A stretch of DNA of 61,148 nucleotides from an uncultured bacterium (GTDB taxonomy: Bacteria; Patescibacteriota; Patescibacteriia; SG8-24; DYFX01), in contig CALCDZ010000003.1 in NCBI GenBank assembly GCA_937900255.1, forward strand, positions 1 through 61,148. Reading direction: 5' to 3'. Each line of letters begins with the position of its first letter. The stretch's first letter is position 1. Below the pieces are notes generated by a model. It did no database searches and was not told the DNA's origin. It saw only the letters and a program-made list of their open reading frames with translations. Below, one piece after another: positions 32,725-33,203 of the stretch. The position numbers and the translations under genes are program-made.

Positions 32725-33203
32725 GAGCGAGCCTGTAAGCCGAATTCTGTACCCGCTTGCGCGGGCGATGGCCATCTTTCTCGGCCCGCGATTGCTCGCG
32801 GGCTCAAGCAAGCTACCTAATTTGCTCTTGCACCGGATCGGCGTTTACCCCGGCATGCATCGCTGCATGGCCGCGTGGGCCCTTACCCCACGATTTCAAC
32901 CTTGCCACGCTCCTTGCGGAGGCCTCGGCTTGCGCCTGTGGCGGTATGTTTCTGTTGCGTCCCGTGCAAGCCTCGCGGCTCTCATGGGACACCCTCCGAA
33001 GAGGGCCCGCACGTCCGGCCGAAGCCGGACTTCCCTGGGTTTGGCGTATCCGCACCATCTCTCGTTACCCGAGACATGGCGTGATCCGTTATGCCCGGTC
33101 GCCGTTAGCGACGATCTCTGAATCATGGATCGCTCCACGAAACGGTGTTCGGACTTTCCTCGATCCGCCTGTTTTTGGCGGGTCGCGGCCATCCGGCTCA
33201 CTC
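32725..33203 (-). ncRNA. rnpB: RNase P RNA (479 nt, expanded)
   Basis: Minus strand: P1 GAGUGAGCC/GGCUCGCUC, GAGGAAAGUCC, GCAACAGAAA, GGUAAAC, ACAGAAUUCGGCUUA; upstream TTGACA-17-TAGACT promoter (33269-33242). Confidence 0.97.

Follow-up and report, generated by a model that had tools for sequence, protein, structure and literature searches.

In RNase P RNA, a textbook ribozyme, variation of the specificity domain is generally taken to be confined to a few known sites, P9, P10.1, P12 and P13/P14. Variation at several of these sites has been described. In Deinococcus radiodurans, P9 carries an extension and its L9 loop has become internal (PMC8457005). An extended P9 is also found in Methylacidiphilum infernorum (PMC9945441). 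The P10.1 element is present in RNAs of types B and C (PMC7191817). Among the tertiary contacts of the RNA, L9 (with the sequence GYAA) docks on tandem G-C pairs of P1 (PMC5066622). Finally, rnpB genes with large helix extensions have been reported in CPR bacteria by Lui, Nielsen and Arkin in 2021 (PMC8172020).

The rnpB gene analyzed here is located in a stretch of DNA of 61,148 nucleotides (the window), from a CPR genome (Patescibacteria, Minisyncoccota/Paceibacteria-like) of 1.07 Mb in 10 contigs that is 100% complete. The gene contains about 115 extra nucleotides in its specificity domain. We consider it likely that these represent two independent, vertically inherited peripheral expansions of an RNase P RNA derived from type A, one in P9 and the other in P10/P11, whose helices would act as spacers and a strut.

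This RNA shares some features with each of the known systems. As in Deinococcus (PMC8457005), it is a type-A RNA in which P9 is lengthened past the position of L9, and L9 appears to have become an internal loop. However, P9 in the window ends in a conserved pentaloop, GGUAA, whose stem contains a G.G mismatch, no P9c-like pseudoknot with L12 was found, and the lineage is an unrelated one, in the CPR. The first hairpin in P10/P11 (to be referred to as hpA) emerges from the same bulge in the 5′ strand of P10/P11 as P10.1 in the type-B RNAs of Bacillus and the type-C RNAs of Chloroflexi, but it is short, variable and capped by UUCG, and has no receptor-like motif. The third hairpin (hpC) is similar to the GNRA docking helices L9-P1, L14-P8 and L18-P8 (PMC5066622) in its fixed length and invariant GNRA loop. 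In contrast to these helices, hpC emerges inside P11, a place for which no such element has been described, and no receptor for its tetraloop was found. The diverged CPR RNAs (PMC8172020) are from the same phylum and also have large helix extensions, lack P16/P17 and require manual refolding. On the other hand, the available portion of that report describes RNAs with an extended P15 or missing P12/P15, and contains no description of a module of two hairpins in P11 or of a P9 frame common to an order. No description of a two-hairpin branch inside P11 was found in the open-access papers searched.

The rnpB gene and its overall architecture

The Rfam model RF00010 matches positions 33204-32720 on the minus strand with a score of 160.3 bits (the cut-off is 100), and the model is complete (1-367). 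The rnpB gene (32720..33204) is therefore 485 nt long, rather than 479 nt as in the preliminary description. The coordinates of all elements of the RNA given below also refer to the minus strand. In the Rfam alignment, the P9 slot, from P8 to the 5′ strand of P10/P11, contains 130 nt versus 15 in the model, and P16, P17 and P6 are absent (0 nt versus 34).

The RNA has a type-A core and a mosaic periphery. P13, P14 and P18, which are expected in class A, are all present and aligned by Rfam, and the stems of P14 and P18 covary in the genus (for example, CAUGCA/UGCAUG versus AGCCGA/UCGGCU). Class A is also expected to have an internal loop in P15, along with P16/P17 and the P6 pseudoknot, and this feature is not found. 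P15 (32810-32827) forms a closed hairpin, and the 10 nt of its loop, AAAUUAGGUA, keep the GGU motif. This motif of L15 binds the CCA end of the tRNA. As in type B, the RNA has a hairpin at the P5.1 position and a closed L15, and a hairpin is also found at the P10.1 position; in contrast to type B, it keeps P13, P14 and P18 and has no P15.1 or P15.2. The best match within the RNase P clan of Rfam is class A. Since the hairpins at the P5.1 and P10.1 positions and the closed L15 with GGU are carried by a class-A RNA, the periphery can be described as an A/B mosaic.

The P5.1-like hairpin (33121..33142) is located between P5 and P7, outside the insert that was originally described, and is capped by a GNRA loop. 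Its stem sequence is wholly different between members of the genus, although the pairing is always kept, and the loops are GCGA, GCAA or GUAA. In the Rfam alignment this hairpin is left unaligned, with a 15-nt unmodelled insert before P8, and P7 is mis-placed. P12 (32904-32944) looks forked, with a CCAC/GUGG stem bearing two small GCAA-capped hairpins that are both variable in the genus.

A promoter-like sequence, TTGACA-17-TAGACT (33270-33242, minus strand), is present about 30 nt upstream of the 5′ end defined by Rfam. The hairpin CCUGGAUAC-CCC-GUAUCCGGG is located between this site and the 5′ end of rnpB, which implies a processed leader. A hairpin and U-run immediately 3′ of rnpB (about 32712-32683) resemble a terminator, and were not flagged in a terminator consensus scan. 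The window begins with the 3′ two-thirds of a 23S rRNA gene (1-1818, plus strand) and a 5S rRNA gene (1974-2092, plus strand), and four tRNA genes are found elsewhere in it.

The elongated P9

The extra sequence was first described as one insertion of about 115 nt between P8 and P9. All the hairpins in that description are present where they were placed, and the helices are real and located in the specificity domain, but they belong to two separate expansions. The first of these directly follows P8 (33098..33112, GUCGC-UAACG-GCGAC), which is defined by the Rfam alignment and is 100% paired in the 15 sequences of the genus-level alignment described below, with one compensatory pair.

The identity of the long hairpin after P8 is established by comparison with the sister family, f2. 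In all 24 genomes of f2, rnpB contains P8, a long irregular hairpin framed by GGG...CCC, and then directly AGGGA(A/G)AGUGCAACAGAAA, which is the canonical 5′ strand of P10/P11 together with J11/12. As f2 has just the long hairpin between P8 and AGGGAAAGUGCAACAGAAA, this hairpin is P9. The corresponding hairpin in the window (33037..33096) is 60 nt in length. It has a GGG/CCC base, an A-rich 5x5 internal loop, two short helices and a distal stem-loop, with compensatory pairs at alignment positions 26-81, 32-75, 37-69 and 40-66. The distal stem, CGCCAUGUCUCG-GGUAA-CGAGAGAUGGUG (33053..33081), contains the GGUAA pentaloop (33065-33069) and an invariant G.G mismatch, and its motif CUCG-GGU..A-CGAG recurs in f2. 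Several f2 loci (for example L015, L012, L049 and L042) have a small extra hairpin inside the CUCG-GGU..GA-CGAG loop, so that the pentaloop becomes a three-way junction. Based on these comparisons, P9 appears to have been lengthened from about 12-15 nt to 60 nt, which is common to the whole order and usual in the class.

Most members of the order have A-GYAA or A-ANAA as the 5′ strand of the P9 internal loop; the statement that it is GNRA-like is limited to the order, as the class-wide parse is too crude for this purpose. A pseudoknot between GGUA of the P9 tip and UACC at the border of J11/12 and P12 was considered and rejected by eye, as the C residues of UACC form pairs within P12, and variants with GGUUA show no covariation. 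No complementarity between the P9 tip and L12, and no P9c-like pseudoknot, was seen by eye.

Three hairpins in P10 and P11

The second expansion is located after AGGGAA (33031..33036), which forms the 5′ strand of P10 (GG) and the start of the P10/P11 bulge. This segment is invariant in the genus and identical to the AGGGAA of AGGGAAAGUGC in f2, and its 3′ partner, ..AAAC(G/A)CC, is found at about 32838-32847. In all 12 rnpB genes of the genus, there are about 69 more nucleotides between AGGGAA and GCAACAGAAA than in f2. The elements that are added here, in order, are hpA, a linker (GUGCGGG), hpB and hpC.

Hairpin hpA (33013..33030, GUCCGGC-UUCG-GCCGGAC) is located in the 5′ bulge of P10/P11, the site of P10.1 in RNAs of types B and C. 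Its five outer pairs are 100% paired in the genus, three of them with compensatory changes. The linker (33006..33012) is invariant at five of its seven positions. Its GU is probably the 5′ strand of P11a, pairing with the AC of ..AAAC, judging from the Rfam consensus and from relatives in the class that have the arrangement AGU-hp1-hp2-GCA. This GU/AC pairing is broken in two members of the genus, G005 and G011 (GC and GA).

The other two hairpins together are referred to as the P11 module. The first hairpin of the module (hp1), hpB (32992..33005, CCCUC-UUCG-GAGGG), has four pairs that are 100% paired, two of them compensatory. The second (hp2), hpC (32959..32990), is a 32-nt hairpin with a GCGA tetraloop at 32973-32976. 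Its lower stem has four compensatory pairs, and GUCCC/GGGAC in the window is replaced by CCUUAUG/CAUAAGG and CUCGAUG/CAUCGAG in relatives. As this stem covaries, GGGAC is not a strand of P10, and hpC sits inside P11. The hairpin GAGCC-GCGA-GGCUU (32981-32968), which had been taken as P9-like, is merely the tip of hpC.

Next to hpC are GC, the closing pairs of P11b, and J11/12, AACAGAAACAUA (together 32945..32958), which are 100% invariant. J11/12 is the conserved strand that binds the tRNA elbow. In RNAs with the module, the 3′ strand is GG(C/U)AAAC, and the GC pairs with its G(C/U). In two relatives (L107 and L143), AACAGAAA is preceded by GU and the 3′ strand carries GAC. This compensatory change, from GC/GC to GU/AC, supports a two-pair P11b helix that closes the junction beside J11/12. 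With hpB and hpC in this arrangement, P11 becomes a junction of several helices that lies two base pairs from J11/12 and opposite the conserved AA bulge.

Covariation and sequence conservation

The extra region folds better than all of 200 shuffled sequences, with a z score of -3.3. An alignment (A1) of 15 distinct genus-level sequences was assembled from the window, the rnpB genes of 11 other species of the genus, and three metagenome contigs. The 44 proposed pairs belong to P8, hpA, hpB, hpC and four parts of the long hairpin. In this alignment, 97.3% of their cells are paired, compared to 34-51% in a control in which the partners were slid. Fourteen pairs have changed on both sides. None of 500 shuffles reaches these values, and the same helices are recovered independently by RNAalifold. 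The hairpins that were first noticed in a single sequence are thus kept by compensatory changes in its relatives.

The degree of sequence conservation varies among the helices. In the top 20 nt of hpC, 19 positions (95%) are invariant in the genus, as are 23 of the 29 positions (79%) in the distal part of P9. P4, J11/12 and J12/13 are 100% invariant. For the other helices, the values are 22% for hpA, 29% for hpB, 9% for the P5.1-like hairpin, 39% for P12, 43% for P14 and 48% for P18. The invariance of the hpC tip is not circular, since the search that gave 12 of the 15 sequences used the Rfam model rather than the hpC motif. The tips of hpC and P9 appear to be constrained at the sequence level, as would be expected for tertiary or protein contacts. 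The exact 20-nt tip of hpC is found in 10 of about 185,000 species genomes, all of them in this genus and in rnpB. Three of nine exact matches to the motif in metagenomes were dropped as chance occurrences in unrelated DNA.

In relatives, the UUCG loops of hpA and hpB are replaced by GCAA, GUAC and others, and the lengths range from 18 to 40 nt. With this variability and with changing loops, the two hairpins seem to be spacer helices closed by stable caps and not sites of contact. Covariation and the invariant tip of hpC do show that the extra helices are under selection, as had been suggested in the preliminary description. However, the two UUCG loops, which had been taken as its sign, belong to the least conserved of these helices.

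Distribution in the order, class and phylum

The order is represented by 37 species genomes, 13 in the genus of the window (family f1) and 24 in family f2. The P11 module is absent from f2 (24 genomes). For the class, 114 rnpB sequences were obtained from a sample of 121 genomes in about 83 families, and 100 of them were parsed by automated regex and MFE, with 14 sequences unparsed and some others possibly mis-parsed. The rnpB genes of the class have lengths of 354-615 nt, roughly a third of them at least 450 nt, with extra segments at many sites. Between the end of P8 and J11/12 there are at least 60 nt in 57 of the 100 parsed sequences and about the canonical 25 nt in 10 of them, which indicates that an extended P9 is the usual state in the class. 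Much larger domains in the P9 slot, of 90-142 nt, are found at loci L159, L161, L196/L202 and L104, far above that of the window. Moreover, several other Patescibacteria have rnpB genes of 550-647 nt, with their extra segments at other sites.

Two hairpins between A-GU and GC(A)-ACAGAAA are present in 13 of the 100 parsed sequences of the class, including the window. They come from nine families (f1, f13, f14, f35, f38, f58, f59, f63 and f66), and the module is found in both sampled members of f13, f14, f58 and f59. In these RNAs hp2 often starts with G(U)AUCC and ends with GGAAC, with a stem of about 13 bp, and it has a GNRA loop (GCAA, GAAA or GCGA) in several relatives. A hairpin at the hpA site is present together with the module in one member of f59 (L108). 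In addition, f32 has a single hairpin between P10 (AGGG) and P11 (AGUGC) and no P11 module (L067 in G129 and L077 in G066), and a sequence from another class (L204, in G201) likewise carries one hairpin at the P10.1 site and lacks the module. The hairpins in f32 and L204 suggest that this site has been used repeatedly. In other classes of the phylum, the P11 module was found in none of about 40 parsed sequences, among the 30 best-scoring and the 20 longest rnpB. A rough regex parse revealed no link between the presence of the module and the size of P12 or P13/P14.

The extra region had been proposed as a new structural subdomain. It is not one that is new to this genome, as an extended P9 is usual in the class and already published for Deinococcus and Methylacidiphilum, and the P11 module is present in at least eight other families.

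A possible role of the expansions

In the reading that we favor, the P9 extension would emerge just 3′ of the former L9, so that its (A)GNRA- or ANAA-like strand would now be located in an internal loop. By analogy with L9, this internalized strand may still reach P1. Hairpins hpA and hpB would be spacer helices with stable tetraloop caps. In comparison, hpC would be a strut of fixed length, about 13-14 bp, that gives the specificity domain support around the site for the tRNA elbow, with its invariant GNRA-capped tip making a sequence-specific tertiary (or protein) contact. Such docking would stabilize the domain. The P11 module is dispensable in principle, since the RNAs of f2 and of the majority of the class work in its absence.

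The extra helices could instead be neutral expansion segments, solvent-exposed additions that are tolerated but have no function, similar to the rRNA insertions of CPR bacteria and to what is expected from constructive neutral evolution. The sequence and length of hpA and hpB are indeed free, their UUCG or GCAA caps are generic, and the sister family f2 does without the module. The range of rnpB lengths in the class, with extra segments at many sites, and the many idiosyncratic extensions reported by Lui et al. (PMC8172020) are also consistent with this explanation. On the other hand, neutral drift would not readily produce a tip of hpC and a distal P9 that are as invariant as the catalytic core while the neighboring helices drift. 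Moreover, hp2 has a similar stem length and a GNRA loop in distant families, and the module is consistent within families, wherever two members were sampled (f13, f14, f58 and f59). We regard a purely neutral origin as unlikely, although it has a real claim to consideration.

A Paceibacteria-specific functional addition to the tRNA-elbow reader is rather improbable in our assessment. The P11 module and the hairpin at the P10.1 site would in this case alter how the tRNA elbow or T-stem is read, with the tip of hpC contacting the pre-tRNA or recruiting a lineage-specific protein. The invariance of this tip, and the position of the module next to the conserved strand that binds the T-loop, are what make the idea attractive. 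However, J11/12 and J12/13 are unchanged, and RnpA is of ordinary size in families with and without the module. Its open reading frames are about 115-160 residues long in most genomes of both f1 and f2 (RnpA is on contig 9 of G000, at 15174-15497), so there is no sign of a co-evolved extension of the protein.

We consider the topology in the preliminary description, in which one insert of about 115 nt separates P8 from a short GCGA-capped P9 and GCACGGGAC is the strand of P10/P11, to be very unlikely. It is understandable from one sequence, where GAGCC-GCGA-GGCUU resembles a canonical GNRA-capped P9, and Rfam, in a forced alignment that flags mismatches, likewise takes GCACGGGACGCA for P10/P11. 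Nonetheless, GGGAC pairs with GUCCC, with four compensatory pairs, and relatives in the class have the order AGU-hp1-hp2-GCA-ACAGAAA. The succession of P8, a long hairpin and AGGGAAAGUGC in f2, together with the AGGGAA that the window keeps upstream of hpA, also speaks against this topology.

Retention of the expansions in the RNA

Contigs from metatranscriptomes that are identical to the window are unbroken over 32770-33018 (X10) and 32839-33051 (X11), and contigs from X8 cover 32885-33035 and 32726-32885. These contigs come from three separate studies and run through the hairpins in P10/P11. A 272-nt contig from a near relative (X18) spans 32940-33209, a stretch that takes in the module and all of P9 and reaches the 5′ end. 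The contigs from RNA libraries cover just the region of about 32726-33209, and the flanks, below 32716 or above 33221, have no coverage in four RNA runs. Such coverage would be expected of a discrete RNA of about 485 nt. The RNA keeps both expansions, and no credible excised form was seen; the contigs are compatible with a minor processed form.

The preliminary description had asked if the insert might be missing from mature RNA. If it were an intron-like spacer or an intervening sequence, its removal would give a shorter or fragmented RNase P RNA. Insertions are known in the rRNA genes of CPR bacteria. As the hairpins are present in the RNA-library contigs, which are contiguous across P10/P11 in three studies and across the whole insert in the relative, the extra sequence is not an excised spacer. 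The helices are also short and mismatched and would probably be poor substrates of RNase III, and the insert, at 72 nt, is below the size of group I and group II introns. One low-quality contig in X10 does skip 33013-33142. This joint has one side of 20 nt and an identity below 95%, and was rejected; as it would delete P5.1, P7, P8 and P9, the contig is probably from another organism or a chimera. With this evidence, excision is highly improbable.

The least probable explanation, that rnpB was invaded by a mobile or repeat element or by an internal duplication, can be dismissed, as the insert is single-copy in the 1.07-Mb genome, gave no family and just noise at E up to 10 in an Rfam scan of the insert alone, has the same site and architecture, with covariation, in 12 of 12 species of the genus with rnpB and in other families, and carries an exact tip motif that, across about 185,000 species genomes, is confined to the rnpB genes of this genus.

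Implications

The expansion of rnpB is lineage-specific, and by itself it demonstrates no new biochemistry. The two expansions explain the poor alignment of CPR rnpB genes in Rfam, and they provide anchors for better models. If the P11 module were a recognition element after all, it would change substrate selection in organisms with a reduced tRNA-processing machinery. The branch in P11, together with the use of the type-B-like positions P5.1 and P10.1 on a type-A core, is a natural example of the mixing of A and B architectures. A recurrent and selected two-hairpin branch inside P11, beside the strand that binds the tRNA elbow, would add a new variable site to the specificity domain of RNase P RNA.
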